This document shows positions 25,891 to 50,491 of a stretch of DNA of 64,000 nt, in pieces; the stretch's first letter is position 1; every line of letters begins with the position of its first letter. Made by a program: the position numbers and the translations under genes. The stretch is taken from the NCBI GenBank assembly GCA_964016885.1, contig OZ024743.1:31620001-31684000 (forward strand), given 5' to 3'. Source of the DNA: Eledone cirrhosa. Lineage: Eukaryota. Below the pieces are notes generated by a model, which did no database searches, was not told where the DNA came from, and saw only the letters and a program-made list of their open reading frames with translations.

Positions 25891-26376
25891 GTTGAGAATA
25901 CAGAAAGACGTTTTTTTTAATGTAACTCAGTTTCTAATATTAATTTCAAGCACAGAAATACATAACATACTTGCTGGTACTGAAAGCTACTCATGGTAAC
26001 TGCAGTTTATGCACTTGAACTTCATTGGTGGATAGGTTTACTTGAAACCTGCCATCCTGATATCGTCTAGCCTGTTTCTACCTAAAAATGTTTCAAACGC
26101 TTGAAGTGATGTTCCTGTGACACACGAACGTATCACTATGACAGGTGGTAGTAATACAATTACGTACAGTTTACATCACATGCTCTCCCCCACCCCCATA
26201 GAGATAGCACCCGCTGTCATGAGAGCTATAAGCGGACGGCAGATTTTAGTTGCCGTATTCGAAATAACATGTGCATTCTATGTTGAGGTGCTTCTGATGG
26301 GTTATGAGAAGTTTTCTATTATATAAATGTGTTGGTGGCTGTATGTACATATTCAAGTAAGGTAGGGCTTTAAACA

Positions 26377-26545
26377 TAATTGTTTCTACTTTTGGCACGT
26401 GGCCAGCAATTATCGCAGTGTATTACTGGTACTTTATTTTATCGACCCCGTAAGGATGAAAGGCAAATTTAACCTCGGCGGGATTTGAACTCAGTCCGTA
26501 AAGGGACGTAAATGTGCTGCAAAGCATGAAACCCGACCCTCTAAA
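26377..26545 (-). mobile_element. Family A SINE
   Basis: Reverse complement of the same core (ggtactttattttatcgaccccgtaaggatgaaaggc, ggatttgaactc). Confidence 0.88.
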
Positions 26546-27449
26546 CATAATGATTTGGAAACATATAAAGAGAGGTTATGCGAGAAAATACTTGGCTGTA
26601 AATATATATAGCAAAGCAGATTAATTAAATGTCGGTTAATCCTTTAAGGAAATGGCTGTGAGCTGAGGTTTATGACTGTTACACTAATTTATGAAAACAG
26701 CGGACATGATTTCATTGGTTAGATTTCATCAACTAGGCTGTTGCCTTGATTTAGTTATATCCTACGTTGATTATGAATATCTTGCATAGAAAATATTTTA
26801 CTACTGTCAATATTTTAGTAATGGATTCATCGTTCTGCATATATATTTGTACAGTTAATGTTTTCAAAATAATTAATGCTAAACCTTTAGTAACATTATT
26901 CATTTTGCAACTTTCGCCCGACAATATTCTATTTCAATTAATGTATTAATTTATATTAACTTCATTTTAATATAGTTCTGTTCAATATAACGTTTAAAAG
27001 CATCTTAAATACTCTACTAAAATGATTCCGACATATAAAACCTTATATTCTATAACAATTTTCATATATATATTGATATTTATTAGCTCCAACAAACATC
27101 ACACCTCTCCATTTATTAACTTAAACATTACACACATTTACATTGTGGAAATATACCAATGATGTTAGCAGATCAAATTTGCTTAATCTGTTTTAATCTA
27201 CCTAAAGTGTATTACCTAAAGTTTAGGCGACAAGATTCTTTTAAAGTTATTAATTTGGAATGTTTAATTATAATATTCTGCTCTGGAGTTCATTTATTGC
27301 CAGTCTACAGGAGCAAAAATAAAATATAGTTGTAATAAAAGATAATTTCAATTTAATTTGAAACGTGTACATAATCTTCAGTGTGTGTGTATGTGTGGGT
27401 ACATACTCTGGAGTGTGAGCAGATGTATGAGACCCAGCAAGACTCCATT

Positions 27450-27740
27450 GAAGTGTGTCGGCCGCAAAATGGTTGATGACCCGTGTAGCAGTAAATAGTG
27501 ACCAGAAGTTAAGATGGCGTGGAATAACAGCAGCCAATGGCATGACAAGAGTAGAAGAAGTTTTTTTAAGGTGTTTTTTGACGATAAAAACCCCAGTAAG
27601 AAAATTTGCTCCGAACGAACTACCCGTGTCTGAAGGAACCTGCAGCCGTAGAATCAGCCAGATCCATGCAGTGATCATGTCTCGAGCCACCTGCCGGCGA
27701 AACAATTGTAACACGTAATAAACTGAGTCTAGATGCATCA
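27450..27740 (-). mobile_element. Possible degraded 3' end of a CR1/L2-type LINE
   Basis: RRQVARDMIT and FTATRVINHF loosely resemble the RR.RGDMI and FFS.RV.N.WN C-terminal motifs. Confidence 0.3.
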
Positions 27741-27846
27741 CTGATTTTTCGTTTTTTTATACTATCCACACTCTACTCTGTATGAATATTGACTGATAAT
27801 TTTGGCATACCGCCTATGGAAGCACCATAGCTACCATTATACACAA

Positions 27847-27894
<48 letters not shown>

Positions 27895-27972
27895 ATATGT
27901 GTGTGTCTGAGAGTGTGAGTGTATGAGTGTGTGTGTATGTATATATATATATATTTACATATATGTATGCAC

Positions 27973-28047
<75 letters not shown>

Positions 28048-28263
28048 CAATGAGGTATCCACTGTAAGTTGTGGGGTCTATTCTCTATGAAGAACTCAAT
28101 GTAATCCATATGTTGAAAATGTTGTAGGTTAAGATAAATCTCAGAAAATAATAAAACATTAAAAGGAAAACAGAGTCATGATATAAGTTAAACTTTATTA
28201 ACTTATATATATACATATATGTATATATATACATATATATATATATCCATATATATATATATA

Positions 28264-28400
<137 letters not shown>

Positions 28401-29504
28401 ATATTGATAAAGAGGATGGAACCACTAGTCAGAATCTAAACGTTGGGGAGAAATAGCCGGTGCTGAGCTCGATTCACAACGGATCTTGTATCCCTTCTCG
28501 TCTCAAAGAGTTGTTTATCCGACTCACTATATTATTTCATATTTGCTCGACCCTTTTGGCAATTACACAAAAAGCTAATAAGTATTCCAGTGTATCTATA
28601 TGTAAAACAAAATATGTGATCCCATTCATCTACACGTGTAATGACTTTCAAAAATCTATAGAGATTTTGGGTCGAAAGGACCCAGAATTGGTAGATTCAG
28701 GATGTAAATCTGCACAAAATATAGTTTAAAACATCAACATTTGTATATGCACCAGTTCTATAGTGAACAGATGGTGTACAGTAAGATGGAAATGATCGAT
28801 AATCATTGACACCGATATTATCCAGCGCGATATCTGCAGGGAATGGAAGACAATATTGGAATCCCTTATTGATTTAAGTTTGTCGACGAATAGACACGGG
28901 GAATTGAATTTGTGTCACTAACACAGACATGCGAAAATGATGTTGATATTCATTTATTTCTAATTTGGGAAAAAGGTGAACAAATTTCAAGAAGTGTACA
29001 GTCATTTAAGCCAATCCGAATACTTGACTCGTACATTATTTTGTCGAGTGCGGAAAGACGAAAGGCAGATTCGATCATCACAGAATTTGACCTCACAATG
29101 TAATGTGTCAGAACAAATACTACAGTAGCATTATATCTGACTCTCTACCAAATCTGCAAAAGTACCGTTCTCGTTTTGATATTATCCACTTATTGCTGTC
29201 TAAATTGCGAATACCCTTGATTTACAAGTATTTTTAGTGCACTGTGGTTTTATTGTTTCGATTTATTGTCGGTGAAGAGTTTAGCACGATATTCAATGCG
29301 ATGAACTCTAGGCTAGTTTGTATTAGGTTTCTTAGCTTAAATATTGTCATTTGCGTCTCCGTTCTATTAACTTCATTTGAAATAATCAGGCAGGCCTCTC
29401 AGGGAGGACAACACATTGAAAATATTTTAAAGTCTGGTATCAAATAATTATCAAAGACAAGATGGAGTAGGACAGGACACAGGAGAGACAGAAAATAAAA
29501 CCCA

Positions 29505-29547
29505 GTCACTGAGGAGGTCATAGAATGTTTTACGAAAAAGCTTTGAC
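29505..29547 (+). ncRNA. Hammerhead-like motif, decayed stem II
   Basis: GTCA-CTGAGGA-...-GAAA-aagc-TT-TGAC with stem I GTCA/TGAC. A diverged homologue lies near 53885-53960. Confidence 0.5.
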
Positions 29548-30092
29548 AATTATCACGCTATTTATAACATAATATTCATGTTTTTTCAAAGAATTTGATG
29601 TATGATTTGCATTAAATATAATTCTGTTTAATATTACACAATAAGACAATGAAATGTTATTAGTATCAAGGTATTTATCAGGTATTTACATTTTCTGTAA
29701 AATACATATAAAAGCGTTTACAATGATTAAAGGCATTATTTGTTGTATTATCCAAATCAAAGATATTTCGGTATCTTTGTCATATAAGTAGTTCGAGAGA
29801 TTACGATAGAACCAATATCTCCATTTCAATATGAAATATATATTTAAGAAATCACAAAAGAAAATACTCACCTTTTCAAAATATTGCGAAAATATGTCAT
29901 AAAAAGATGTCAACCATAATTGTAGTTGTAAATTATCTTATGTCGTTATTCTAAGGAACCATTAATGACGGTTATTAGAGGTCATCTAATATTAATAGAA
30001 GGTGAATTGGTCCATTTTTTTTATTGATTCCATTAAGAGAGTACAAAACGTTTGTCACCAAGTTTTTCATCACCCCCCTCTCTCTCTCCCTC

Positions 30093-30127
<35 letters not shown>

Positions 30128-30134
<7 letters not shown>

Positions 30135-30489
30135 AATGACAGGAGGCTGGGCTGGTGTAATTCCTTAGAGATTTATTATACTATGAACATTTCAATGAAC
30201 GGGTTCAGTATGAATCCGGTGACATCATCAGGTTTTCAGAAAGTTAACCAACAAATGAATATAGGCGGCCGCCCGGTCTTGAAACTGCTAATATTTGGCC
30301 ACCTCCTCGTCTTGGGAATTTCTCTCTGCTTTTCAGCCTCTTGGATTGTGTCTATTATTATATTCCTTTGTTGGATAACTTTCGGAATAGCTGATTACAC
30401 GATTCAAACTGAACCCGGTCATTGAAATAATCATACTATAATAAATCTTTAAGGAATTACACCAGTCCAGCTTCCTGTCATTTTATAAT
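30128..30489. repeat. Inverted repeat (arms about 30128-30208 and 30408-30489) enclosing a hammerhead-like motif at 30180-30233 (minus)
   Basis: attataaaatgacaggaggctgggctggtgtaattcctt is mirrored at the right end. Minus strand reads AC-CTGATGA-...-GAAA-tgttc-ATA-GT then aataaa. Confidence 0.8.
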
Positions 30490-30609
30490 TATTACTCCGT
30501 ACTCGCACCACCAACAACATCAACGAAGACGTTCTCTCCCTAAATAATACATCAAGGCTGACTATACGGAATGACCAGTTCTATCCAGTGGGGATCCTAC
30601 AAACCTAAA

Positions 30610-30654
<45 letters not shown>

Positions 30655-30669
<15 letters not shown>

Positions 30670-30673
30670 GATA
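30655..30673. repeat. (AGAT)n at the 3' junction of Tx1 element 1
   Basis: Four to five units abutting the element end. Confidence 0.85.
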
Positions 30674-30901
30674 AATTTCTTTATTAGCCACAAGGACACA
30701 AAAGAAGGGGACAAATACAAATGAGGAGTTTACATACAGGTATATGAAAATAAAACTATTAATACAATAACAAATAACAATTAAAATCCCTAATAGGGGG
30801 GAGGTGTTACACAGGTGTTGTACACATCCCGAAAAAATGTACAACCCTCATCTCCAGGAGCACCAAGAGTGAGTACTCCCTTCCTCTCTTCCACTTTTTC
30901 C

Positions 30902-33900
30902 TCAACCTACAGGCTTATATAGAGACAAGGCCCAACCACTCGGGCCATCTTTGCCACATTCACCCACCTTTTATAAAATTTGCTGGGGTACAGCACCTCT
31001 CTCTCCATCCTGATTCTTCTTCCAAAATAATATTTGAAAAAACGAATCAGTTGCTCTCCAGAGAGAAAGGTCTGACCTCAGCCCTTTTAACCTCGTCCAC
31101 CATATAACCTCTTTCACCAGAGCCATAACACATAGGAATACCGCCTCTCCCTCGTTTTTGAAGGAGGGTGGGAGTTTGATCATGACAATGGACTCGGTGG
31201 TCAACTGGATTGGTCCCACCCGCGACAATAGTCGTTCTACATAGCCCCACAGGTCAGTAACGACCGGGAAGTGTACGAATGCGTGTGCGACGGTTTCCTC
31301 GTCGCGCACGCATCTTGGACAGATCTTTTTCGAAGGGTCCCTACCCGGGCGCCCGTGTCTGTAGAGCTTGTCTCGAACTGGTAGAGCTTCTCGGTAGCAC
31401 TGCCAGGCCAGGGATTTTTGGAAGTTGTCCATTGGTCCCGGGCGGAAGGTCCTACCGAACAGACTGGCCAGTTCGTCCTCCTCTACGCCTAGAGATTCTC
31501 CGAGCGTGTCGTCGCACTTGCTGCGGACCAACCCTCTATAGAATGTCGAAGTTGAGTCTCCACTGATCGCCGGGTCCGTTTGCCAGAGGACTGTGAGCGC
31601 CTGAGCACATTCGATGTGCCAGTCGCCCATATTCCTCGGTCTTTGTTTGACTCAGGACTGCAGCTCGGTCAGCGAGACGAGTCGTGGGAAAGCTCGCCTC
31701 ACGAACGGGGCCCACACCGGTTGTCTGGTGAGGAATACGTGGAGGTGCAGCAGCCTGAGCGCGTGTTTGCGCGTGGTCAGGGACGGCATCCCCAGTCTTC
31801 CGTTTGAAGGGTGTTGGCAGCAGATGGATCTTCTCACCAAAGGAGCCCGTTTCTTCCAAACGAATTGGAAGAGAGCGCCCTCCATTTTGGTGAGCGTTTT
31901 GGCTGGACAAGGCACGACGGTCAAGCGGTAGTAGATGACGGACGCTATAAAAGTGTTCGCCACGCCCGCTCGACCTTTCAATGATAGTTTGCACTCGGCC
32001 CACTTCTGGGTGAGCGCAAACACCTTGGCCGTCACCTCGTTCCAGTTCTTCTCCACCTAGAGATCCGGACCAAACCAGACCCCGAGCAGCTTTACCGGTC
32101 CTTCCGTCCAGGGTCCGACGAAGTCATCGGATGGCATCGGTTTGCCTCTCCACGTTCCGAGTTGCAAACCGACGGATTTGTCCCGGTTCAGCTTCGTTCC
32201 TGTGAACCGTTCGTATTCCTCCAGTAAGGTTCCGATCTCCCCGATTTGCGAGGTGCTCGACACCACTACTGTCACGTCGCAGTCCCGGTTCTAAAGTGAT
32301 GCCCTGCAATAGCTCCAACTTCCGCAGTAGTGGCTCGAGCGTCAGTACGTACAAAAGGGAGGAGAGAGGGCATCCCTGTCGGATGGATCGCGTGATATGG
32401 AACGGCTCGGAGAGGTAGCCGTTCATCTTGACCCTTGAGCAGAAGTTGTTGCTGTGCATTGCAGCAATCCAGCCCCTGAACACGCCTCGAGCACCGCATC
32501 CAGGTAATGATGGTAAACCCTATCGAAAGCCTTAGACTGATCTAAGTTGATCAGGGCTCCACCGAAGCCGGGTTTACACCCTACCCTCTCTATGATGTAT
32601 CGCATGAGGAGGAGGTTGTCGTGTATGGACCTGGTCGGGATTGCGCATGTCTGCGCTTCTCCCACCAGGTTTTCGACGACAAGCGCCAGCCTCTTACCAA
32701 CACCTTGGCCAAAATCTGTAACTCTGTGTTGAGCAGAGTTATGGGCCGGAAGTTACCTATGTCATCCACCTTGTTCTTGTCCCCCCTGACTAACATGGTT
32801 GCGCCTTTGGTCACAGAACTGGGAATTCTCCCGTTCTGCTGCCAGTTGCAGTAGACCGCTTCCAGGAGACCGGAGAACAAGTCCGGCATTGTTACGTAAA
32901 ATTCGCAGGGGAGACCGTCGAGACCTGGAGATATGCGTTTGCCGCATTAGCTCAGCGCATACTCTATCTCAGCGGCCGAAATCGGCCTTTCGCAGAACTT
33001 ATCCTCGCTCTCAGAGAGTCGCTGTAGGCCGTCGAGGTATGAACCAAAATCTATAGCCCCTCCCGGCGCGCCGCCCTGCCCGAACAGTTGAGAAAAAATG
33101 CCGCCGAAAGGCCGCGCATATTTGCTTGACGTATCACGCGTCCGTATTGGTCCTCCAAAGACCGAATCGTGGACTTGTTGCCACTTTTCGGCTCCGTCAC
33201 TCGGGCCCAGCTAACAACTTTGGCTCCCTCGTTTCCCAGAGCACGTATTTTGCTTCTGACAACGCAGCCTTCATGCTTTGCGTCGAATAACTGGTCTAAG
33301 GCCGTTCTCGTCGCTAGCACGCTGGCTACGTTTCCACTCCTAAGTGCCTCTTCTACTTTATCTACCAGTTTCTTTTCGGTCTTATTTCTATCTAACACTA
33401 ATACTTTACTAAAACCTATCGAGTCTAATCTAACTGCCCTCTTGAGAGAGTACCACCATCTGTTGTTGACAATGGCCCCCGCCAAGTGTTGCTTAACTAA
33501 AGTGCTAATCCGTCTACTCTAGGCTTTGTATGCCGGTAACGACAAGTTCAGCTTCCAGTAGCCAGGTCCCTGTCTATGGATTTTGTCAAGGTTGACTATG
33601 CAGCTCACTAATTTGTGGTCTGATTAGGCAACCATGAACATTTGTGGACAGCTTAACATGTCCCTGTCCTTCTTTCTAACTAGAAGCTTATCTAGGTACG
33701 ATCTAGATGTTCCGCCAAGATTAGTCCACGTCCACAGTTGCACAGTCGGAAAATCTAGTCGATATCTATCGGCCAGGTCAAATCGGTCGATTAACTGTTT
33801 GAGGCTGTTACATCCCCCTCTATCGGGACATGCTCCCACATATTCTCAACGTGCATCTAGGATTCCATTCCAGTCCCCCACTAACAGCAGGTAGCGGGAC

Positions 33901-34295
33901 GTTCCCAGAAAAGTCTCTACACGTTTGAAGATGTATGGCCGCGGTGTCCCGGATGGGGCATATGCGGTCGCCAGCCTGAAGGCTCCACCTTCACTACCGC
34001 CAACGTCTAGGACCACCATTCGACCCTCCGGGTCCAGGTGTACCGTCTGTGTTACGAGGTCCAGGTGTTTCCGCAGCAAAACAGCATCCCCACCCCCACC
34101 TCCCGGCTGACAGAGAGATGCGTAGATCTCAAAGTCGTCGAAGATGGGGGTCAGTTGTCGATCGCTGTGGATCCTGGACTCGCAAATGGCTACTACATTC
34201 ATACTGTGCGACCTGAGGTTGTTTAAGTGTTTGCCCTGTTTCCAGGGCATTCCCAGGCCGCGTACATTCACACATCCAACTCTAATATTGGCCAT
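30902..34295 (-). pseudogene. Element 1 ORF2 (APE endonuclease, reverse transcriptase, C-terminal zinc knuckle), disrupted
   Basis: VNVRGL, GDWN, WTW, YLD, FRPITLLN, LDQSKAFDRV, RQGCPLS, CPRC...H. The YADD segment is deleted near 32280. Several frameshifts. Confidence 0.93.
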
Positions 34296-34302
34296 GTTGG
34301 TG

Positions 34303-34339
34303 CTGAAAAGTTAAAAGAAGAAGAAAAGAAATCACTCAC
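34303..34339 (-). other. Candidate 37-nt GT-AG intron at the ORF1/ORF2 junction of element 1
   Basis: AAG|GTGAGTgatttcttttcttcttcttttaacttttCAG|CACCAACATG. Confidence 0.5.
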
Positions 34340-36265
34340 CTTTTCGTCTCCTGAGGACCAGGCTGCACAATTTACATGGGGGTGTTGGAAGGTATGTTTG
34401 GTGGTGGTTTCTGGCGGGGTGGGGACGGAGGTGTTTGGTGGGGAGGTGTTGTCTGGTGGGATGGGGATGACATGGGTGGAGGTGCCTATGGTGGGGAAGC
34501 CTTTGAAGGGGACGCAGTTGATTGGTTTCACGCAGGAATTCACCACGTCCTCTACAAATGTTTCTTTTAGGGATCTATAAGTTCCTATAGGGACCCTGAT
34601 CAGTTTTAGGTTCATGTTTTTTTGTTTTTGTTGGAGCTATCCAAAGTTTTCCCTTCGGTTTTGACCAAAGGGTTGTTTCTGATGGTCTCCATCAGTGTTC
34701 TATTTTCTTCGTTTATGTAAGTGTATGTGTACTTTTCCTGTGTTGTGTTTGTTTTTGTCTGTGGTTCCTGCGTGTGTTTTCTCTTTGTTGTGGGTGTTTT
34801 GTTTTCGGGAGGGGGAACTTTTGTTTGTGATGTTTGTGCTGTTTGTGCTGGTGTTTGTGTGTTTCTTTCGTTTTTGTTCATGCGGTGCTTTTTTTTTTTT
34901 ATTTTCACGGGTTGGAAGGGTTCCTCCTCGTCGCTGCTGGGTGCCGTCGATAGTGGTTCCTCATCCGTGTTGATGGGTAGGGGTATGTTTTGGGGTTCTA
35001 TAGTGTCTGTGTGTGTTTTTGTATTTGTTTTGGGTGGGGAGGGGTTGGGTGGGATAGTGTTCTCTGTTGTTATTTCTTGTTGTCGTGGTGGTGGTGGTGG
35101 TTGTGTTGTTATTTGTGGTGTGGGTAAAAGTGGTTTTCTTTTTGTCAATTGAGGATAGGCAGCCCTTAGGTGACCTCTGCTTGCGCAGTGGTAACATGCG
35201 GGCCGCCTACCCTCAACCGAAATGTTTATGTAGGTCTGTCCATCCAGAGGTACTCTTTGGAGGATTTTCATTATACGTTCTGGGCTCATCTGCACCAGAA
35301 TTTGGACGCTAGTCCAACTAAATATATCTCTGGAGGATTTCCCTACTGAGATCAAAATGTCTTGTTCAAAGTCAATTAGGCCATAAAGTATCCACCAAAT
35401 ATCTACTTTGGGTCTTATGCATGTAATTTTTATTTTTTGCGTTCTTTTTCCCATGTATGTAGGGAAAAATGTAAAATGGGTGGACACAATGGGCGCGATG
35501 GAATATTTTTGTGCTGTTATGTTGTCTTTCATCAGCACCGAGATGCTGCCGAAAAGTTTGGCTTTCTGAATGAATAAAATGTTATCCATGTGGTTCCTTA
35601 AAACCAGCTCAATGTCACTCTGAGAAAGTTGAGCTGGTCTTTTTGATGTATTTGAGATTGTCCTGAAAACCACCGTGTTCAGGGCATTCTCTCTCTTTAG
35701 TTCTTGTGGTGAATTTATGCTAAATGATCCATTGGGTCCAAAAGACAAATATTGTTTAGCTTCTTCCAACTTTTGTTTCGCGTTGGTTAAATCCAAAAGT
35801 TGAAATATTTCCGTTTTGTTTTACTGTATCAGCAAAAGAAATGTTGCTGTTGTTGTCTTTTTTGTTGTAGTTATCACTGTTGTTTGTATTTTCTTTGGTG
35901 TTTGTGTTGACATTTTTTCCCTTTTGATTAGTATTGTTGGATGTGGTTTAAATTTTTTCATTTTCTGTATTTTTTGGTGTCTGTTGTGGGCTGTTATTTT
36001 CATTTTTTGTTGTGTGAATTTCCATTTCTTTACGAAAAGAAGTATTTGCAACATATATTTCCTTCTGTGTGTGGATACATGTGACGTTTGTGACGTCAGA
36101 CGTGTTCAGTTGCTTACAAGAAGCTGAAGCTTGGTCACCTTCTAAATGTTGAGGCGGTGATGTGGGCCTTCCTTTGTCCATGTCTGCTACTACCTGCTGG
36201 TCAAGTAGGCATGTCTTTCCCTTCCCATCTTCTTGCTTTGGCAAAGAAGTAGGTGCTTCGGCCAT
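34335..36265 (-). pseudogene. Element 1 ORF1 (gag-like, CCHC knuckle), frameshifted
   Basis: ISVEGRRPACYHCASRGHL aligns with ISVEGKRPKCFRCGSKTHL of element 2. Pieces: 35948-36265, 34612-35796, 34268-34615. Confidence 0.88.
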
Positions 36266-36384
36266 TTAAAAAAAAAATGAAGTGTTTTGCAAAAATATTT
36301 TCGAAGATATTTTGGATGTTTTTGCCCTGAGGGGCACGATATTTTGGAGGACTGACCAGATCAACATTTGACGTGTCAGTCCCT

Positions 36385-36451
36385 CTACAAATTGGTATAA
36401 AATTAAAAGTTCACAATGACGAATTTCTAAGGAAATTTAAACAAAACTTAC
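36385..36451 (-). other. Candidate 67-nt GT-AG intron in the 5' UTR of element 1
   Basis: CG|GTAAGT...ttttataccaatttgTAG|, starting about 31 nt from the element 5' end. Confidence 0.5.
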
Positions 36452-36482
36452 CGAGCAAGTTTAACACGTGTCCATCCCAGCG

Positions 36483-36529
36483 AGATAGATAGATAGATAG
36501 ATAGATACATTTTCTTGTCCATCCCAGCG

Positions 36530-36574
<45 letters not shown>

Positions 36575-36575
36575 T
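36483..36575. repeat. (AGAT)n at the 5' junction of element 1, interrupted by a 14-nt copy of the element terminus
   Basis: tgtccatcccagcg recurs at 36516-36529 between two AGAT runs. Confidence 0.9.
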
Positions 36576-37285
36576 AGATATATATTTCTATCACATAAAT
36601 ATGTACATATATGTGTGTCAGTAATCGGCTTTTATTTTCGGCGTTATTTCAACGATGGTCGAGTAATCCGAATACTATGCTCTGTAATAAATTAAAAAAA
36701 AAGATCTCATTTTGACACGATCAACGAAATACTCGGGTGGTAATTCCTAACCAAAGATTTTTCCCTGTAATCGAATAAAATATGGACCTTAACGTTAGCT
36801 TATATTTCTATTTTGATTTCTGAGCCGTTTTTATTATTTTCCTTTGTTTGACAGACTAACTTCTAGAGTGTTGTTGTTCAGAGGTGTTGACCATAAAGGA
36901 CTTGTTAGTAGGTGTCGAAATTAAGCTCAAATTTTAGTTTGATTTTATATGACTAAATATTAATTGCACCTTCGTAGTAATTAATTTGGGAAATTTCTTT
37001 CATTGATTTATCTAGAAATTTGTATTAGAAGTAACAAAATATTCTATTTGAATTTGAAGCAATTATTTTCAAATCTATTGCGAAAATAAATTTAAAGAGC
37101 CCTAAATAATGCTACTGAAGTGTGGCATAGTTGAGAGAAAAGAGGGAATTTTACATTAAAAGTAGATACATCAATTTTACATGAAATACTCAGAATCGTA
37201 CGTAAATAGAAATAAAATGGCCAGATAATACAGCGCATGTATAGGAAAGGGATTACGAACTATTTGTTAATATATTATATACTTA

Positions 37286-37476
37286 AGGGTGGTGGTTTGG
37301 CAGTATCGGTAGAGGGTCGGACAATATGCTTTGTAGCACAGAGTTACGCCCCTTTCTGATCTGAGTTCAAATCCTGCCGAGGTTAACTTTGCCTTTCATC
37401 CTTACAGGGTCGATAAAATAAAGTACCAGTAATGCACTGGGTAATTGCTGGCCTTATGCCAAAAGTAGAAACAATA
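37286..37476 (+). mobile_element. Full-length family A SINE
   Basis: Same head, B-box, core and tail as 24744-24938. Confidence 0.9.
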
Positions 37477-37760
37477 TATTATATACTAGAAGAATGAAAC
37501 TGCATCTTGTTATTCTTACAGGTATTAGTTTTATCAACCAAACCATGTCACATGATACTGTACAATTTATCACATTATGTCACGTTAAGTTGCCCTTGGG
37601 ACTTTGATAAACGCCTAGTGTGTGTGGAATACCCAACTACATAACTTAGATTTTACGAACAGGTTCATCCCCGATCGAATAAACTTGGACATTCGTCGTC
37701 GGAAATCTCACAAGTCCAACAAAACTACTTGTTATATATATATATATACATATGTATATT

Positions 37761-37815
<55 letters not shown>

Positions 37816-39206
37816 ATGTGTGCGTGTCTGTGTTTGTGTGTTTGTGTGTGTGTGTATGTATATATAAACGATGATGATGATGATAAAGCTTATGTGTAAG
37901 TATTTATATATATGTATTTTACACAAACAACAGAAACCGGGTCTCTAAGATGTGTGAGCCACAGGCATCAGTGTTTCGTGTATCTTGTTTGTTATACTTT
38001 CTAACAGTTCACTTCGATATGTGTGTTCTGATTTTTGTTGTGTATTCCAATGCATCTTACCTCTTTATATTTTTTCTAACTGGATTTATCTTCTGTTGGT
38101 TTGGGTACGGTAAAAATTGATAAAAAATATTAAATATCGCAGATATTTGGAAACCTTTAGTATTTGATGTGTATCTTATATCCAAGGATTATAACAGAAA
38201 AATTATGTTTCAAATCTACGAATCTATATTACAATATAGATTTAACATTTATACTTTTGCGTGTAACAGTGTATATGCGTGAATGTAATAATTTCTTTTC
38301 ATATCTAAATTTCGTTTCATTCTATTCTATATATATATATATATATATATATACTTGCAGTTTATTTGTACAATTCGATACATTGCAAGTTAGTTGAGTA
38401 TCGTGCAAATACTCCCATTAAAACTACGTTCAGTGAGCTAATGTTCAAATGATTTATCTGGAATATTATTTTGTTAATCATTAAACCAATATATATTATT
38501 GTGCATGTTCCTGTTTATCCACAAGACAGCAACATAAATATCATTTTCTTCTAAATATTTACTGACGTCACTCGATATATTACTGTAGAATTTACTTATT
38601 TTAATAAATATAGACTTTCTGCGAGACAGAATATAACCACATTCTGGTGATGTTTCATCATTGTCACTAGGTAATCATATTACCATTCTTGAAACCAGTC
38701 TTAGTATTATAGAGTCTAAGTGAATTCTTCCTGAATAAATACAATTTAATTCACATATGGCTCTCTTAAACATAAAACATTATGGTATGCTTGCATTTTC
38801 TACTTATACATCTAGATTTCTACCAAACTAATACAAACCTATTACAAACTTAATATAAAATATTGATAATGAAGTCAAGTGTGTGCTTACAACTGATAAA
38901 CAGATAATCAGATTATTTCAATTTACTTTCTCTACATATGGTTATTTGCCAAATAATCGGGACAAACAGCCAAGCTACTCAATCTAAAATTGTACATAAG
39001 CCATCAAATCTGACCTTAGTGTCCATTTACGAAGAAATATAAGCTATTTAACTCTGTCCCATAGGCAAATGGATCAATGGTATACAAATTTTAAGTCTAC
39101 CGTACATTTGGTATGTAGAATATGACGTACAAACCTCCACGCTGCCACCCGAAAATAATACGTTAAAAGGTAAAATTTAGGTAAATATATTACTATGTAA
39201 TTTAGT

Positions 39207-39240
<34 letters not shown>

Positions 39241-40073
39241 AAGAACAAATCGATACAAATACTATTTGGATGAAAGGGAACTCTGAACTCGGGGTTGGGG
39301 GGGGGGGGTAATTTCAGAATGCAGAAAGCCTGAACGAATATCGCAAGCCATTGTATCCGATGTTGCAATAACTCTGACAAATCACCACATTCTATATTAC
39401 TATAGAATTGTATTATCCACCCTTATAGATCATAACACTGAGTAGAACTATGATATTAATACAGATAAGATGTGGAAATAAGTAAATATTTAACAGAAAA
39501 AAGACAGTTACACTGAATGCTTTGAGTGAATTTTCGTAAAATGCCAATAAAACACTTGCATATATATTATCATATTTAATATGGCCTGACCCCTCTTCGC
39601 CGCCCCCGATACGACGGTAATTATAAGTAAATCCAGGGAGGTAAGAACTGTAACGATGACTATATAACAAAGGTTTTCATTATGTACTATCGATAGAAAT
39701 GTTACACTGGGCTGGAATATGTATGTAGTTGACAACCAATTGTAACTCGCAATTTAAATTCAACCAGTAATGTTGAATATATAAAGGAATGGTACTATTA
39801 AGCTTGCTTGGCATAGTTATTCAACAGGAATTTCTATATTCATTTGCTTGAACTTGCTATATAGGGAGGGACGGTGGATGGGGGTAGGGTAAATACATGT
39901 ATATGTATGTTGTATCTTGGATATTGTATGCGTGTCTGTACGGAATGATTAAAGCGTGTTCTAATGAGTTATGAATTCAAATCCGCTGCGGCCCTTTCGT
40001 TGTACTGCGTAGATTTTGTAATTTGTTGGTCTTTCACGGCTTTAGTCGGCCTAGAACTTGTAAATTTGATATT

Positions 40074-40122
<49 letters not shown>

Positions 40123-42834
40123 GTTGAGTTATGGAACACTAACACACGACATCATGTTTCTTAAATGTAAACAGAAGTGAGGCACATTCGTACACCCACA
40201 CAGGAGGTGACATAATAGAATTAAGCGTGGTGAGATGTGAGGTAAACATAAATATATTAGTGGGAGCATACAGGCAATACATCCATGCGCAGCTAAGTGT
40301 TTCTAAACAAACGAAGTACACAATTATAGTGTATGAGTGTGGGTATCGGAAAACTGGTGAAAATGTTGATGAGTAAAATATACGATGCATATTATTTTTA
40401 ACAACGCATAATATAGTTATTTTTGTTTTGTCACAGGCATTCTTTGCTGTAGCAGATCCTATAATCAAGCATTTTCCATATTTCTTCATCACTCATGTTT
40501 TCTGACAAAGAATACAATCCATTTTTTATGGTGATGGTGATGGTGTCTAGTTTGAGGGAATGTAAAGAGTAATTTGTATGACCCATCTCAATTGGTGGAA
40601 CCAGAAAAATGAATAAGGTTTAAATCTTTCAGTATATTTGATGTCATATTTCGCTGCAATTTGTTCCTAAAATATAGGGTCAAATAATTCCCTTACTTGA
40701 ATAGTTGTCGAGCGAACATACATATTATTAAATGGGCAGGTGAGGAAGAGACCGTTTATAACATATGTTAAAGTTTCTGAATCTATTGAGATGAAAATCG
40801 AACATAACCGTATAAGTAATCTGTCTCAAATATATTTTTGGAACGTATTGGACTCAACTAAAGACTCTCAAGAAACAGGTTCTGTTTTGAATTGGGCTAC
40901 AAATTAAGTCTAACGCCCACAAAATAGGAACTATTCTCCACAAGAGATTTCACATAGTTTCCTCTATGGTAGAAAAATATAACCATAGTGATGAGAAATG
41001 AAATCCGAAATCATGTATTTTCAAAGCGAAACACTTTACTATAAAACATCTACTATAAAGAACCAAGTTATTATGCTCTTGTTATTTTTTTACTGATCAG
41101 ACGGTTCCAGAAGCCCGTTGCTTTTGAGGAGCGAGACCAAATGAATTAACTACATATGTTAACCTCACCAACAGTTCATTTAAGTAATATTACGAACATA
41201 TGTAAGTGCTTTGCAACCTATTCGTTCGGCAACAGTTCACTTAGCATCGTTAATATTCAGCTGAACAGCTTTTCAATCTATTTACGATCAATTAAAACGT
41301 CCAATTCGGGTTTGAAATGTCCAGTTCAATTGTAATTTAGAGTGTAAATATTCTCTTTATGATCTCTATTATAAACTTTAGCATTTCAGATCTTAGTGAG
41401 TTGTAGGTATTTAGATTTTGTATAAAATACATTTCATCGTGCCAAATAAGTCAATATGTTATAGCACTTAAAGTCACCCACGAGCTGGTGATTTTAATAT
41501 TCTATGGAGTTGTTCGAAGATATTCAATTGTTACTAACAAAATATTCGTTTCCCTTTAGCAATGCAGAAAAGACCTGCGTTTTGATGAAGGGGAAATTTA
41601 GACAACTTTTATTCGTGGACTTTTTGATTCTTTGCTGCGTTAATGAACGAAAACGGCTTCAATAGTGTAATAAAACGATATCTTCCGCTCAGATATCTGA
41701 AAGCAATTTCTTGCTCGTCTATACCCAGCATTGTTCCACAGTAACTATTTTCTGATCATATAGTAATGAAGCTAATGATAAGAAAGATAATGATTACTGT
41801 GCATCTAAACTGGTTCTTTCCACTTGAAACATGAGGCACGAATATGAGAATATTATTAATTTAGATGTTGTCAAATGCATATTAAAGCATAGTTTAAGTT
41901 TAATGAATGAAATGTAAAATGAAATAATTAAATTTATACACAAATACAGAATGTATATCTGATTTGAAGTGAATGGAGAGGATTAAAATCGATAACTATG
42001 AAATAATATTAATAATGGAGAAACTATTAAAATATAAGAAACTTAAATCTAAATAAGCGCGGTATGGGGAATGTAACTAAAATAGTACCCACTATATTTG
42101 GAGCACAGCGTTTTTCACATTCATAGCCCACAATATGCACACATCCGTACGTCTTATGTCCCTATCAATTCAATAGCACAATTGATAATGTAGGCTATTT
42201 GCAAACACCTATCGTATACAGTTACCATCGAAAAACCTAATATAACGCACACGATACATACTCTACACTAACACTGCAAAACTATATAACACAAACTGCA
42301 CAGCATATGTTCTACAGTACACACTGCTGGCGGCTCGATTCTAACTGGAAAGAGCTTACGAGCAGAAAATTAAATTCTAATGTCTGTTTAGTTAGCCTCT
42401 GAAATCAATTATTTTATTATTATTCTGTTTGTAGTTGGTTTTGAGTTGGTGGTGAAGGCCTGTAGACCTAATTAAGTGTTTCATTTCGGTATTTCTCTCA
42501 GAACATTGGAGTTATTGTTGGATTCCAAATTGCCTAGCCTTCTCTGAGTTTTATATTGCAGCCTATTGGAAATCCAAATCCTTTCCCAGTATCAGATTTG
42601 AAATTGTAACACGAAATTATTTTACTTAATAAGAATGATTACCAACATATAATTCTTTCAGAAAATGATGTCCAGCACATACATATTGACACTCAGAAGA
42701 CTATCCGTAGGAACTTAAAATCTGTATGAAAATGGTTAATATTTTACAAATCTCATCACTTATCACACATAGCCGTGAGCGATTATATTTAACAAAAAAA
42801 TTACATACAAAATGAATGGTTGTTACACATTTCT

Positions 42835-43412: not shown

Positions 43413-44301
43413 TATATGTATGTATCCATACACGCTTTCTTTGTTTTGCAACATACTCACTGATTCATTAAATATTGTAAATTCAATATGAGTAAAGAGA
43501 TTATTTCGGATATTTTGGTCTTGATTTGCTTTTGTGAGTCGCGAGTTCATTTAGTTGAACCTTTCATTCATTATTTCAATTCTGCTAAATAACTTTGATA
43601 ATAAACTAACGCTATCATTATCCATAATGAATGCATAATCAAATTTATTAGAAACATTTTCGTTGCTAATGATTGATTTTCTCTACACGGAGGATATAGA
43701 TGGATTAAATATTAAATAAATTTTCGAATACACAATAAGTAATAGTTTGCCTATTTTTTTCTTTTTGCGCTGAAATACCGATAAACTCCAGAACAACGAC
43801 AAAGAAATCATTATCATATTTTGAGTATGATGTGTTTATCTTGCTCTGTCGGATTGTGCATTGCCTCGAAGTTAAATAGAAATTAGTTGAACTAGATTCA
43901 TACACACCCATAATTCTCACTACTACTATGGCAACTGTGGCCTTATTTTCTAAAGAGATGATACAGATAAATCTGTTGGCATTGATATTAGTGGAGGGAT
44001 GACGTTACTGTCGACCTTTTGTATTCAAATTTTGAGTCGCTGCCCCGTGACCACTCCGTATTGCTAAACGCTTCTAGTCGTGAAAATGAACATAGTCCAA
44101 ATATTTAGGCCTTCGCTTTCTCCTTGGAGAATGAATAGCAAGTTATTATGGGATCCCTTTTTTTCCGTGGACAATGTATGCCGCCATATTAGCAGTTTGT
44201 AACAAAAATACTTTCAAAAATGATTATTCAAAAAACTTAAAACACACAAAAACACTTACGGAGTGATGTGTACATACGTTTCGAGAGACTCAACAGAAAA
44301 G

Positions 44302-44375
<74 letters not shown>
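44302..44375. repeat. (AAT)n at the 3' junction of Tx1 element 2
   Basis: About 24 perfect units abutting the element end. Confidence 0.95.
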
Positions 44376-44377
<2 letters not shown>

Positions 44378-44599
44378 TTTCTTTATTAACCACAAGGGTT
44401 TACATAAAGTAGACATTAAGGACAGTGCAGGACAATACAGGGCGGTACAAATGGGCATTTCTGCGTGTAAAAAAACAGAAAAAAGAGGGTGTAACAAAAA
44501 ATAACAATGAAAAATTCCCCAATAGGGGGGAGACTTCGGAGGGACATTTGTGGAGAAAGCCCAGTAAAAAGCCACAATGACCCTGACCACCAAGGCAAG

Positions 44600-47500
44600 T
44601 GTCCTCTCCCACAGATATATACTCAGAGTAGGCCCATTCACTTGGGTCATTCTTGCTTCTCTCACCCATCTTTCAACAAAATGCTGGGAAGAGAGCACTT
44701 CCCTCTCTACTCTGATTTTCCTTTTCAAATGAAATTTGAAAAAGTCAATCAGAGCATCACCGAAGAGGTAAGTGCTCGTCTTCAGCCATTTCAAACGTGT
44801 CCACCATACTATCTCTTTCGGCATGGCCACCAGACAGATAAAAACTGCCTGCCCTTCCCGGCTAAAGGAGGAGGGCGGGGCAATCCTCACGATGGACTCA
44901 GATGATAGCCGGATCCGTCCTAAACGCGACAGCAGGTGTTCGACATAAACCCACAAGTCAGCAATTTTCGGACACTGGACGAGTGCGTGCAGGACGGTTT
45001 CGTCGCCCTGTACGCATCTCGGACATGCCCGGCTGACGGCACCTCCATGCCTGTAGAGTTTATCCCGAACTAGCAAGGCTCCTCGGTAGCACTGCCAGGC
45101 CAGAGATTTCTGGAAGTTGTCCATAGGCCCTGGCCCGAAAGTTCTTCCGAAGAGATTGGCTAGTTGATTTTCGACGACGCCTAGAGTTTCCCCAAGTACG
45201 TCGTCGCTCTTCCCCTCCACTAATCCTCTATAGATCGCCGAGGTGGAGTTTCCACCGATCACATTGCCCGATTGGTCGAGGGCTGTGAGCGCCTGAAGAC
45301 ATTCCAGTATCCAGGCGCTCCCTCTCGGTCTTCGCTTGACCCAGGACTGCAGCTCCGTCAAGGAAACGACCTGGGGAAATACGTGTCTAGCAAACGGCGA
45401 CCACACCTGATCACCGTCGAGGAAGAGGTGGAGATGTCGTAGCCTGAGCGCGTGCCTGCGCATCATCAGCCACGGCATGCCCAGCCCTCCACGTAGCGGG
45501 TGTTGACAACAGATGGACCGCCTGACCATCGGAGCGCGTCCCTTCCACAAAAAGCGAAAGAGCAAACGCTCCACCGCAGTCAGGCGAGGCTTAGGACAAG
45601 GTACGACGGTCAGGCGGTAGCACATGACAGACGCGATGTACGCGTTAGCCACCTCCGTCGACCTTTCAGGGATAGCTTCCTCTCCGCCCATTTCTGGGTG
45701 AGAGAAGCCACCCTGCTCGTCACCTCGTCCCAGTTTTTTGTCCGTCTGGAGGTCCGGACCGAACCAGACCCCTAGCAATTTAACAGGTCCGTCCGTCCAG
45801 CGTCCGACGACGCTGTTGGACGGCATGGACCTGCCTCTCCAGGTGCCGATCTGTAGGCCCACTGACTTTTCCTGGTTGATCATTGCTACTGTCACCGCTT
45901 CGTATTCTCTTAGTGTAGTGCCGATCGCCTCTATGTGTTTGGCGTTCGACACCACTACGGTGACATCGTCCGCATATGCTGACACGGATCTTCCGCATCC
46001 TAGTTCGCGCGGGACTCCCCTCAACGTCTCCAGTTTGTGCAGTAATGGCTCGAGAGTCAATACGTACAAGAGGGACGAGAGGGGACATCCTTGGCGGACC
46101 GAGCGCATGATGTTGAACGGTTCCGACAGGTGACCGTTCACTCTCACCACAGAGCAGATGTCGCTGTGCATGGCAGCGATCCAGCCTCTGAAGACGGGCC
46201 CAAAGCCAGCCGCCCCCAGAACTGCCGCTAGGTAAAGATGGTCGACCCTATCGAAAGCTTTCGACTGATCTAAATTGATCAAGGACCCACCCGTGCCAGG
46301 TTCCTTAGCTACCCTCTCTATGATGTATCGCATGAGGTGGAGGTTGTCGTGGATGGATCTGTCGGGATTGGCGCATGTCTGCGCCTCTCCCACCAGACCA
46401 CCAACGACAAGCGCCAACCTCTTTGCTAGCACCTTGGCCAAAATCTTGAACTCTGTGTTTAGCAGAGTTATGGGCCGGAAATTATCTATGTTACCCCCCT
46501 TGTTCGGATCCTTTCTCAGCAGTGCCACCGCTCCTCGGCTCACAGAACTGGGAATTCTCCCGTTCTGTTGCCAGTTGCAGTAGACGTCCACCAAGAGGCC
46601 TCCGAACAATCTGGCATCTGTACGTAAAGTTCATAGGGCAGACCATCCAAACCAGGCGATTTACCCCTTGTGCCGCCAGTCATTGCCTCCCTTACTTCAG
46701 CGGTTGTTATCGGCTTTTCGCAACACTTCGCCTCAGTGGCCGAGAGCCCCGGCAGTCCGACGAGGTAGACACTAAAGTCCATCCCTCTACCCGGCCCACC
46801 ACTGCCCCCGAACAGCTGAGCGAAGTGTCGCTGAAAAGCTTCACACATTTGCCCGGGATCGAGTAGCATGCGCCCGTCGTGGTCCACCAAAGACCGGATC
46901 GTGGCTTTGTTGCCACGACGCGCCTCCGCCACTCGGGCCCATTGAACGGCTTTCGTCCCCTCGTGGCTGAGAGCACGCACCCTTGCTCTGACAACGCAGC
47001 CTTCGTGCTTTGCATTGAAGAATTGGTCAAGGGCCAATTTCGCCGCAAGCACGTCGGTCGCAATGCCTTTGCTAAGCGCCTCGTCTAATTTTCTAACTAG
47101 TTCTCCCTCTGCTCTATTTTTCTCTATTGCTAAAGCCTTACTAAACCTAATCGATTCTATTCTAATCGCTCTTTTCAGAGCAAACCACCACTTGTTGTTG
47201 ACGATGGTCCCCGTCAACGCCCTCTTAACTAGTTCGCTAATCCGGTCTCTGTAGGCCTTGCGCGCTGGTAAGGACGCGTTTAGCTTCCAGTAGCCGGGTC
47301 CTCGTCTATGAAGCCTATCTAAGTCAAGCACACAGATCACGAATTTGTGGTCCGTGTAGCTGACTATCTTGAATTGTGGACAGCCTATGCTAGACCTATC
47401 TATTTCCCTACAAAATACTCTATCTAGATATGATCTGGATGACCCTATGCGATTTGTCCAAGTCCACATTGGCGCATTCGGGAAATCCAATCGGTACCTG

Positions 47501-48027
47501 TCAGACAGTTCAAAAAGCCTGAGCAGGTTGGTGAGGCTTTTGCACCCTCCACCCATATCCGCTAATCCCACACAGTCCCAGCGTGCATCTAAGATCCCGT
47601 TCCAGTCGCCCACTAACACTAAAGAGCGGGACGTTCCAAGAAAGGTCTCCAGACGCCGGAAGAAATCAGGCCGCCCTGCTCCTGTCGGGGCATAGACGGC
47701 CACTAGCCTGAAAGCTTGCCCGTCTCCGCTGGTCACGTCCAGCACCACCAGCTTACCCTCTGGGTCCAGGAAGATGGCCCGTATGGCGAGATCCAAACCT
47801 CTCCGAAAAAGCACAGCAACTCCTCCCCCCGATCCAGGACCGCTGGGAGATGCGTACACATCGTAGCCGCCGAAGATCGGTGCGAAGGCCCGTGCTTCGG
47901 AGATTCTGGTCTCGCTGATGGCCACTACATCTATGTTTAGTGACCTGAGGTCGTTGAGCAGGTGACCCTGCTTCCATGACGACCCCAAGCCACGCGCATT
48001 TATGCTGCCTATTCTGAGTGAGGTCAT
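44600..48027 (-). pseudogene. Element 2 ORF2 (APE endonuclease, RT with YADD, CCHC)
   Basis: INARGL, ISET, GDWN, TDH, SPGLDGLP, FRPITLLN, KAFDRV, RQGCPLS, YADD, CPRC..H..C. Frameshift near 46610 and a compensating pair near 45735/45660. The true C-terminal end is approximate. Confidence 0.95.
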
Positions 48028-48065
48028 GTTTAAAATAGAGTGGAAAAATGGGAAACACCACTTAC
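48014..48065 (-). other. Candidate 52-nt GT-AG intron at the ORF1/ORF2 junction of element 2
   Basis: CG|GTAAGTggtgtttcccatttttccactctattttaaacatgacctcactCAG|A. The donor contains the ORF1 TAA stop. Confidence 0.5.
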
Positions 48066-50160
48066 CGTACTTTTGGTAGAGGAGGGATGGTTTTTACATC
48101 CCTTTTCACTTGATCGTCTGGCGAAGAGACCGTTGAATCGTCCTTTCGGCTGGTCGTCGGCTCTTCTAAGAGAATGTCTGAATATACTCTTCGATTGATA
48201 GTTCCTCCTAGGTCCCTGAAATCACCAACTGCGTTGGGGAATTTCGTTTTAATGTTCGTGTATTGTTTCTGTGCTGTTTTTAGCAGTTTTATGTTAGTTG
48301 GCGTTTTGATTGGTGCTGGTATTATGTAGTCGTGTTGTGAAATGTCTGTGTGTTCAATTATGTAAGTCATTAGTTTCTTGTTGTGTGTATTTATTGCCGT
48401 GCATTTGTTTTTCTGGGGGTGGGGTGTGGTTCTGCTATTTTCTTGTCGTTGTTGCTGGGTGTGTGTGTTTTGTTGTTGTGTTTGCGATGTTGGTGCTTGT
48501 GGTGGTGGTGTTGAAGGTGTTGTTGGCGGTGGGGTTGTCGCCGGTGGTGACGGTGGTGCTAGTGTGGGTGGTGATGGTGTTGATGGTGTTGCTGCTGTGG
48601 GTCTCTTTGCAGTAGACTTTACCCTTTTCTCATTTCTTTCCCCCCTTTTCAAAGGCGACGATGCGCTGCTTCTGCGTTTGTGCCTTCTTACGACATTTTG
48701 CCATCTCTCTCCCACCTCACACTCCATGTCTGATTCTGTGAGGTCGGGGAGGGGTACCAGCTCCACTCTTTCACTTGTTGTTGGTGGTGATGTTTGCACT
48801 GGAGTCTCTGTTGCAACTGCATTTGGTATTGCTGTTTTTGTTGTTAATATTTCCACTGCTGCTGCTGCTTTTGATTTCCGTGGCGTGGGTATGGGTCCCA
48901 CAGATCTATCGTTCCTCGTTGCCGCTTGTCCTGTTGCTGGTAGCCGTGGAGCCGGTTTCGGAAGGAGGGGGGTTTCTCCTTTCTCAGGGTCTTTTCGTTG
49001 CAGAAGGCCCTGAGGTGAGTCTTCGATCCACAGCGAAAGCATTTCGGGCGTTTTCCTTCAACACTTATGGGCAGTTGAGTGCCGTTATCGAAGTATATCA
49101 CATCCGGGATAGCTTCGATGCACTCCTGGTTGGTTTGGATTAGCATCTCAATGGAGGTGCCGACCCAATCTTCTCTTACTTTTTTCTGTACTTGCAGTAC
49201 AGTTGTTTTGTCCTCGATTCCGACGAGGACAGACGCGGCCAGCCAAGAAGGGGCCATCCCGGGGGGGACGTGGGTCAGTTTGACCCTCACAATTTTTTGC
49301 CCGCAGTAGGAGGGCACCAACACCATTTCCTCGCTCCTTAGGGTCACTAAGGATTGTGCCTTTGCCTCCTGGGGTGTGGCAAAAAGTACGTCTACGGTGG
49401 CATATTTTTTTCCTCTGGTGATGTGCGTTTTCCGCTGCCACACAGACCCCAAGGCTTTTTGTATTTGAGCCTCTGTGGCTCTTTCCACCCTACGGGATTT
49501 TGTACTTACTGTACGGTACGTGACCGTACAGTGCTGTTGGGTTTCGAAAAATGTTTCCGCTGCCTTGTAGATTGCTCGGTGTCCAGTCTTTGTCACCATC
49601 TAATTCGCTTCCTCTAATTCCTCATTTGTTATCAGGATTGTTTCCAAGTTTTTCGCAATACCTGCAAATGAGATTGGTTTTTCTTTGCTGCTGTTGTTGT
49701 TGTTGTCAGAGCTGCTGTTACTTTTGTTGTTGCTGCAGGTACTACGACTACTGCCTCCGCCGCTGTTGCTGTGGTTGTTGTTGGTGTTGCTGCTGCTAAT
49801 GCTGTTGTTGTTTATGCTGTTGGTGATGCTGTTGCGGCTGCTACTGTTGTTTTCATTGTCACTGTTGCTGTTGTTATTACGGCTGCTACTGCTATTATTC
49901 CTGACGTCAGACGAATGACCTGGGTTTTCGTATTTCCCGCACACCTGTTTCGTCGTTGTCGTCGTCGTCGTGGAGAAATCTTGCACGCTTTGCACGAGAC
50001 TTTTCTTTTCTGTCGTCGCTTTCGAAAGAGAAGGGAGGGAGAGAGACACATTTAAAGAAGGGAGGGAGAGAGACAATCTTCTCTCTGCTGTAGTGACGAT
50101 TGAGGAAGAAGAAGACGGAATGAGTGGGAGTGACCTATAAAAATTCTTTTTCGTAGCCAT
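48062..50160 (-). pseudogene. Element 2 ORF1 (low-complexity N-terminus, CCHC knuckle, Pro/Thr-rich region)
   Basis: Starts MATKK. One nonsense codon at 49600-49602 and a frameshift near 49000. CFRCGSKTHLRAFC knuckle. Confidence 0.9.
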
Positions 50161-50278
50161 GTTGTTTTTTTGTTTAAAATAAATATTGGGCACAAAACCC
50201 CAATAAGCAGTTATTTAACCCCGAAGGGCCAAATAACGGGCAGAAAGACCCCTCTCACGATGAGGAGGGTGTTTTTGT

Positions 50279-50340
50279 CTACAAGTTGGTTAAAGTTTTA
50301 AACAATTTACAATTGTTATAGCGGTCAAAATTTACAATAC
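50279..50340 (-). other. Candidate 62-nt GT-AG intron in the 5' UTR of element 2
   Basis: CAG|GTATTG...ctttaaccaacttgTAG|, starting about 35 nt from the 5' end. The acceptor end is nearly identical to that of element 1. Confidence 0.5.
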
Positions 50341-50375
50341 CTGACAGAGCCGAGCCTCCGTCAACCATAGCATTC

Positions 50376-50491
<116 letters not shown>

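Follow-up and report, generated by a model that had tools for sequence, protein, structure and literature searches.

A splice-donor-like motif shared at the ORF1/ORF2 boundary of two related, decayed octopod LINEs

Two LINEs lying in 64,000 nucleotides of Eledone cirrhosa DNA (the whole stretch analysed, hereafter the window) carry a donor-like motif at the boundary between ORF1 and ORF2, and its conservation at this place is supported as more than chance would give. The motif reads as a single inherited one rather than as two inventions. Tentatively, and with somewhat less than even confidence, we take it for a U1-type donor for which splicing to the AG 37 nt downstream is rare, in which case ORF2 would be translated from its own ATG on the unspliced RNA.

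The window holds two GC-richer islands amid microsatellite-rich DNA, and both islands are decayed minus-strand LINEs, here called element 1 and element 2. Two reading frames matter at the junction of element 1: frame A, which encodes the conserved C-terminal domain of ORF1, and frame B, in which the TGA inside the donor motif is a stop codon. The features are, in window coordinates:

30676..36492 (ends approximate), minus strand: element 1, a decayed full-length L1/Tx1-type LINE with AATAAA at 30685 and (TATC)n flanks on both sides
36385..36451, minus strand: candidate 67-nt 5' UTR intron of element 1, whose donor GTAAGT (36451) is the only other GTRAGT of this element
34615..36265, minus strand: head and body of ORF1 of element 1, with an RRM-like region, a CCHC knuckle and a P/T-rich linker
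34614..34616, minus strand: first frameshift, two extra letters relative to the closest contig compared (0 mismatches over 34588-34771)
34450..34620, minus strand: conserved C-terminal domain of ORF1, of the FPxDVG type and read in frame A
34372..34374, minus strand: frame-B stop, private to element 1
34334..34339, minus strand: donor-consensus GTGAGT of element 1, its TGA (34338-34336) being the ORF1 stop if frame B is terminal
34303..34333, minus strand: T-rich spacer of element 1, with a branch-like TTAAC and TTTTCAG
34293..34295, minus strand: ORF2 ATG of element 1, in ACCAACATGG context, 44 nt from the donor
34282..34283, minus strand: another in-frame AG of element 1, within the Arg codon 5 of ORF2; the first AG of element 2 has the same aligned place, and a 58-nt intron would end here
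34268..34270, minus strand: frame A stop, 28 nt into ORF2; no stop interrupts this frame at the donor
30928..34295, minus strand: ORF2 of element 1, with AP-type endonuclease, reverse transcriptase and zinc-binding C-terminus, and with several stops and frameshifts
44377..50375 (ends approximate), minus strand: element 2, a related decayed LINE used as comparison copy, with (ATT)n flanks on both sides
50279-50340, minus strand: candidate 62-nt 5' UTR intron of element 2, its 3' end resembling that of element 1
48014..48065, minus strand: junction of element 2, with donor GTAAGT at 48065 holding the ORF1 stop TAA, a T-rich spacer and the ORF2 ATG at 48027

By their sequence, elements 1 and 2 are related decayed LINEs of the L1/Tx1 type. 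Each has a separate ORF1 with an RRM-like region and a CCHC knuckle, the latter preserved in element 2 itself and, for element 1, restored in its relatives, and a 3' AATAAA followed by a simple-repeat tail, with LTRs absent. ORF2 matches PF03372, PF00078 and PF13966, and its best solved relative is human L1 ORF2p (PDB matches, E 2.5e-11). Decay shows in about 10 frameshifting indels over the 3.4 kb of compared ORF2, both copies summed, and in ORF1 of element 1, where a stop stands at about 35950 and the frame shifts near 35800. A search with a single ORF1 sequence gave 0 matches and a profile search 4. With both ORF1s in the profile, 493 proteins came out at E up to 0.001, 150 of them listed; among 20 homologues looked up, the 13 that carry a species name are all Octopus or Argonauta, which points to an octopod host. 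The Atlas neighbours of one homologue, P0003, are of CCHC and ZCCHC3/RRM type. A search of viral contigs found no relatives, and one of prokaryote genomes a single, irrelevant match.

Several homologues (P0003, P0010, P0012, P0015, P0022, P0087 and P0152) carry the FPxDVG C-terminal domain behind a long disordered linker; a Pfam search with the ORF1 tails of both elements gave no match. In four others (P0031, P0059, P0064 and P0104, of which P0064 and P0104 are named as Octopus), pieces of ORF1 lie inside longer predicted proteins with unrelated host-like parts, and these would be either exonised fragments or annotation errors.

Some further features accompany the elements. Microsatellites lie at 30650-30676 and 36480-36580 around element 1, both (TATC)n, and at 44300-44377 and 50375-50445 around element 2, both (ATT)n; the matching flanks could reflect microsatellite targeting or tail repeats, two copies being too few to separate tail from target. 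At its 5' end, element 1 also carries a duplicated stretch of 14 nt. Across a 40-nt block of the 3' UTR (30766-30803 / 44493-44532), the elements agree at 85% of positions, more than ORF2 does on average, and the block is a candidate signal for recognition by the reverse transcriptase. Elsewhere in the window, 136-nt inverted repeats with 88% complementarity (24802-26511) flank a piece of ORF2 from this LINE family, located on the plus strand at 25196-25908, a MITE-like 302-nt inverted repeat, 98% complementary with its arms 270 nt apart, occupies 22308-23181, and a tandem array with a 44-nt unit in at least 23 copies spans 15253-16482.

The letters that an earlier note on this DNA reported for the junction of element 1 are all in place: AAAAG followed by GTGAGT at 34339, TTTTCAG ending at 34303, CACCAAC and the ATG at 34295, on the minus strand. 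So is the span of 37 nt between donor and acceptor, the excision of which joins frame B (TGA 34338-34336) in frame to ORF2. Two of the note's descriptions had to be given up: the tract it called pure pyrimidine contains TTAAC (A at 34312 and 34311), and the surrounding sequence it called unrelated to element 2 is related, with ORF2 DNA 69.6% identical over 3.4 kb and junctions that align donor on donor. Because of this relatedness (ORF2 about 70% identical), the donors of the two elements are not independent cases.

GTRAGT occurs only twice in each element (about 6 kb, sense strand), and one of the two lies at the aligned spacer position, 44 nt from the ORF2 ATG in element 1 and 38 nt in element 2; the chance of finding it within 60 nt is about 0.025 per element. 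Over GGTRAGTG the two elements share 7/8 letters in the junction alignment, compared with 17/32 in the spacer behind the donor and 51% at third positions of ORF2, a modest excess (p about 0.03) drawn from a pair of related elements. No variant of the donor GT occurs among the 40 variants listed of 831. As a control we used distant relatives found in metagenomes (22-32% identity), where 72/80 loci had a match reaching the ORF2 start and removal of 10 near-duplicates left 62: GTRAGT stands in the 100 nt before ORF2 in 2/62 and a T-rich stretch in 12/62. Where distant L1/Tx1 loci have a long upstream ORF, GTRAGT is found at its stop in 0/34 and GTRAG in 2/34. In the distant element L009, a pyrimidine tract and CAG sites precede the ORF2 ATG shortly (about 1900-1990), with no donor nearby. 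A hairpin over the donor was considered and rejected, being no better than in shuffled sequences (z -0.42 and -0.38).

The acceptor side looks different. By its GT...AG ends, consensus donor and pyrimidine-rich tract, the segment 34339-34303 resembles a U2-type intron, and among the acceptor-like sites on the element 1 sense strand TTTTCAG is the richest in T (13/15 pyrimidines, 10 T). A branch point usually lies about 18-40 nt before the AG; the A of the only branch-like motif here, TTAAC, lies 8-9 nt from the AG end. The acceptor is not conserved in the related element: no AG stands between donor and ORF2 ATG in element 2, which shows a 6-nt gap aligned with the CAG of element 1; the first AG of element 2, at 48014, falls inside ORF2 codon 5, after the ATG and 52 nt from the donor. 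The AG at 34303 shows no variant among the 40 listed of 831. In place of the CAG, a single-copy X4 contig has CAC, which may be decay, since this contig has 4 differences in about 30 nt. The ORF2 ATG is at the same aligned place in both elements, and the frame offset from ORF1 stop to ORF2 is equal in both, as would happen 1 time in 3 by chance. As to length, the lower threshold for introns in human lies near 65 nt, apart from rare ultra-short cases of 37-65 nt (PMC4463651, excerpt), most of these G-rich (PMC4463651, PMC5435141, excerpts); 37 nt is the very bottom of this class on the human scale, and the host minimum may differ. By size, the GT...AG segments of 62-67 nt in the 5' UTRs, both ending in CCAA(T/C)TTGTAG, are better intron candidates than the 37-nt one.

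Whether the donor of element 1 truly contains its ORF1 stop depends on the frame in which ORF1 terminates. When the C-terminal domains of element 2 and 7 homologues were combined into a profile that left element 1 out, its match in element 1 lay solely in frame A, to about 34450 (E 3.4e-4). The closest contig compared is without the two letters at 34615, and therefore the ORF1 body joins frame A. Because frame A reads through the donor and stops inside ORF2, a donor-in-stop arrangement needs a second frameshift, and none lies near 34400-34442 among the 12 indels listed of 27, though even the 34615 indel shows up in just 9% of X1 depth; one X4 contig stays in frame A to 34442, and the frequency of frameshifting indels given above for ORF2 also speaks against a second shift. 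The earlier note had allowed for one stop repair and a single frameshift. Its stop repair is borne out, as relatives differ at the private stop 34374-34372 (at 34374, a different letter stands in 99.6% of the depth in X1, in 95% in X4 and in 11/11 X10 reads), whereas two frameshifts, not one, lie on the way from the ORF1 body to frame B.

A codon model speaks for frame B, preferring it to A by 11.4 bits across the last 99 nt, a score as bad as which occurs in 0/36 true-frame control windows and in 10/36 if B is true; over 60 nt the preference is 12.6 bits (control windows 2/59 vs 5/59). The model picks the true frame in only 26/36 of the 99-nt and 41/59 of the 60-nt windows. A silent-site argument for frame B, by which the variants at 34354 and 34342 are silent only there, was dropped because just 2/17 comparable variants were silent in the known frames used as control, and the private stop was rejected as a proof of frame: the same letter makes a Val/Gly change in frame A, and 34542 behaves alike. 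Taken together, we give frame B a slight edge as the terminal frame of ORF1 in element 1. What stands of the donor-in-stop arrangement is the donor motif at the boundary and a plausible frame; against it, the conserved domain lies in frame A. In this region the summed depth of X1 reaches 25,000-42,000 at 34345-34400 vs about 250 at 34470-34488, a step not present in X4; in X1, many more relatives align over the final 60 nt ahead of the donor than over the upstream linker.

If the RNA of a LINE were spliced and still made reverse transcriptase, it should be copied back, and intron-less genomic copies would be expected. We therefore compared 4 of the 12 listed runs (3 contig sets and 1 RAD read set) with 33800-36472 at 80% likeness. 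Among the 15 joints listed of 364, none measures 37, 58, 67 or 2149 nt; for joints of 67 and 2149 nt, the compared stretch included just 21 nt of 5' exon. The weakest listed joints have a depth of about 30, vs a summed depth at 34342 of 5439 (X1) and 3178 (X4), depth not being copy number. Common intron loss thus appears unlikely, a level of about 1% or less being possible; in human L1, spliced copies make up about 1.8% of full-length insertions (PMC5860796, excerpt). On the protein side, an ORF2 N-terminus is absent from all 150 listed ORF1 homologues (of 493), and the 6 long ORF2 relatives found in a weak search measure 881-1276 aa. P0124 was considered as a fusion and rejected: its ORF1 knuckle region joins ORF2 at profile position 135, with a match at positions 135-155 only, and not at the predicted junction. 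Homologues with the C-terminal domain end in Arg in 0/8 cases; 2/8 end in GK or GKS directly before the stop, which would fit a phase-1 donor G/GTAAG (p about 0.008, post hoc, inferred from protein ends alone). The in-frame 37-nt intron of the earlier note is not supported by these comparisons, given its unshared acceptor, the kept ATG, a TTAAC too near the AG, and the absence of an intron-less joint or a fused protein among those listed; it is likely not spliced to any real extent.

We favour a U1-type donor with ORF2 read from its own ATG because the conserved set is donor, U-rich spacer and ATG, not donor and acceptor. The GTRAGT at the boundary would act as a U1-binding regulatory site, and the U-rich tract right behind it would aid U1 binding, a U-rich tract directly behind a donor being the TIA-1-type arrangement. 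The donor may limit splicing or premature 3' processing of the full-length RNA, and ORF2 would be translated by re-initiation on the unspliced two-gene RNA, as mammalian L1 ORF2 is. A conserved premature poly(A) signal near the donor was sought and rejected, the nearest upstream AATAAA (34903) being probably private because most relatives differ at 34901. Left unexplained by the U1 reading are the T-richest CAG and the equal frame offset, both of which a fusion of ORF1 to ORF2 would explain. In that unlikely alternative, the ORF1 stop would sit in the donor of an ultra-short phase-2 intron, of 52 nt in element 2 and of either 37 or 58 nt in element 1: its retention would give ORF1p, and its occasional removal, which deletes the ORF1 stop and so would set the ORF1:ORF2 ratio, a fusion protein mobilising the unspliced RNA in trans. 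In-frame joins do exist in both elements, and at the aligned AG of codon 5 the last Arg of ORF1 replaces the shared Arg 5 of ORF2; the private frame-B stop and the codon model also fall on this side. A phase-2 GTRAGT contains an in-frame stop by consensus, as an example with GTGAGT in real introns illustrates (PMC2911113, excerpt), so that the donor-in-stop is one coincidence rather than two. But fusion requires the second frameshift that the listed indels do not contain, its 37-nt form lies at the extreme of the human range, and a fused RNA should be copied back in cis, whereas the listed joints, the listed homologues with their 0/8 Arg ends, and the lengths of the ORF2 relatives contain nothing of the kind.

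The boundary signals could also pair with partners further away. The earlier note suggested as an alternative that the acceptor at 34303 belongs to the 5' UTR donor at 36451, in an intron of 2149 nt that would yield an ORF2-only mRNA. On this reading the donor 37 nt upstream would be a decoy that keeps the 36451-34303 splice rare. The pairing suits element 1, where an acceptor-like site stands 7 nt before an ATG in good context and the two GTRAGT lie in the two non-coding segments, and spliced ORF2-only L1 RNA yields functional ORF2p in human cells (PMC2896524, excerpt). It does not carry over to element 2, which has no AG before the ATG; moreover, the CAC of the X4 copy, a nearer AG (36385) that suits the 5' donor and resembles that of element 2, and the joints listed, with their short cover of the 5' exon, make this pairing quite unlikely. 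Conversely, the donor could pair with a far acceptor in the 3' UTR, removing ORF2 to leave an ORF1-only mRNA; the unspliced form would then be the inherited one, because ORF1-only RNA encodes no reverse transcriptase. Such a use would account for a donor at the end of ORF1 in any phase and would fit the GK and GKS ends; in element 2, a T-rich CAG at 44461 would lead to a short tail and a stop before AATAAA, and Ty1/copia elements making a short Gag RNA provide a precedent (PMC12786077, excerpt). However, the 3' UTR of element 1 has no aligned acceptor, its T-richest AG (30756) gives no stop, and both 3' UTRs are T-rich anyway, which leaves this reading improbable; the genomic comparison covered 33800-36472 and thus not the 3' end. 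To the same improbable degree, the motif may have no role in splicing and be an inherited stop-codon or re-initiation context with an unstructured T-rich spacer that resembles splice signals. A T-rich stretch before ORF2 does occur in 12/62 distant loci, with GTRAG in 0/12 of them, and the motif is in part the stop itself, its excess conservation being small. Yet the one letter in which the two motifs differ is the degenerate letter of the donor consensus (which also swaps TAA and TGA), and GTRAGT is otherwise scarce in both.

How LINEs supply a little ORF2p from a two-gene RNA is understood for few elements. A donor kept at the boundary in diverged octopod families would point to control of RNA processing there, whichever partner is used, and the readings differ in the junctions they predict: the boundary donor joined to 34302 or 34281, a junction that starts from 36452, the boundary donor joined to the 3' UTR, or no junction at all. 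Were the fusion intron true, it would count as one of the shortest introns in animals, would go against cis-preference, and would be a route to LINE ORF2 expression that we did not find described in the literature searched. In that literature (subscription journals, Repbase reports and supplements lay outside it), we met no LINE whose ORF1/ORF2 boundary carries a donor or an intron, and nothing relevant in PMC12477816; we regard the boundary donor as a real but thinly sampled variant of the splice signals in LINEs.

Finally, we would place the motif beside retroelements in which splice signals have been described. The Ogre intron separates upstream coding sequence from the reverse transcriptase. 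In the plant LTR retrotransposons Ogre and EVADE/BARE1, splicing sets the ratio of structural to enzymatic protein (PMC12786077, excerpt), the same ratio logic as in the fusion and ORF1-only alternatives; these are, however, LTR elements with particle packaging and demonstrated introns, whereas a cis-preferring LINE would tend to lose its intron. Foamy viruses are reported to use their major splice donor to suppress polyadenylation via U1 (PMC3694450), and, unlike there, a conserved poly(A) signal near the donor was not found in element 1; common to both is the proposed action through U1 rather than as the end of a nearby intron. Closer to the host, Octopus vulgaris has 13 recently active L1-Tx1 families (PMC13282606 Table 1, excerpt), and elements 1 and 2 likely belong to this octopus L1-Tx1 group, with which they share octopod ORF1 homologues and L1 ORF2p as best solved relative, a placement by group and not by family. 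Introns go unmentioned in the main text of that paper, whose repeat library may bear on the terminal frame of ORF1, and the main text of another on octopus LINEs (PMC9115989) is without splicing or introns. Human SpORF2 RNA parallels the 5' donor and the acceptor before ORF2 that are present in element 1, but it was shown by RNA (PMC2896524, excerpt), whereas element 1 is known from DNA alone and element 2 is without the acceptor. The human L1 itself has a conserved splice donor, is mostly unspliced, and leaves intron-less genomic copies of its spliced RNAs, the SpIREs (PMC5860796, excerpt). Its donor lies in the 5' UTR, whereas elements 1 and 2 have a second donor at the ORF1/ORF2 boundary and no intron-less joint among those listed; alike are the two-ORF, APE-type LINE and the conserved donor, and the U1-type reading would hold both systems to be mostly unspliced.
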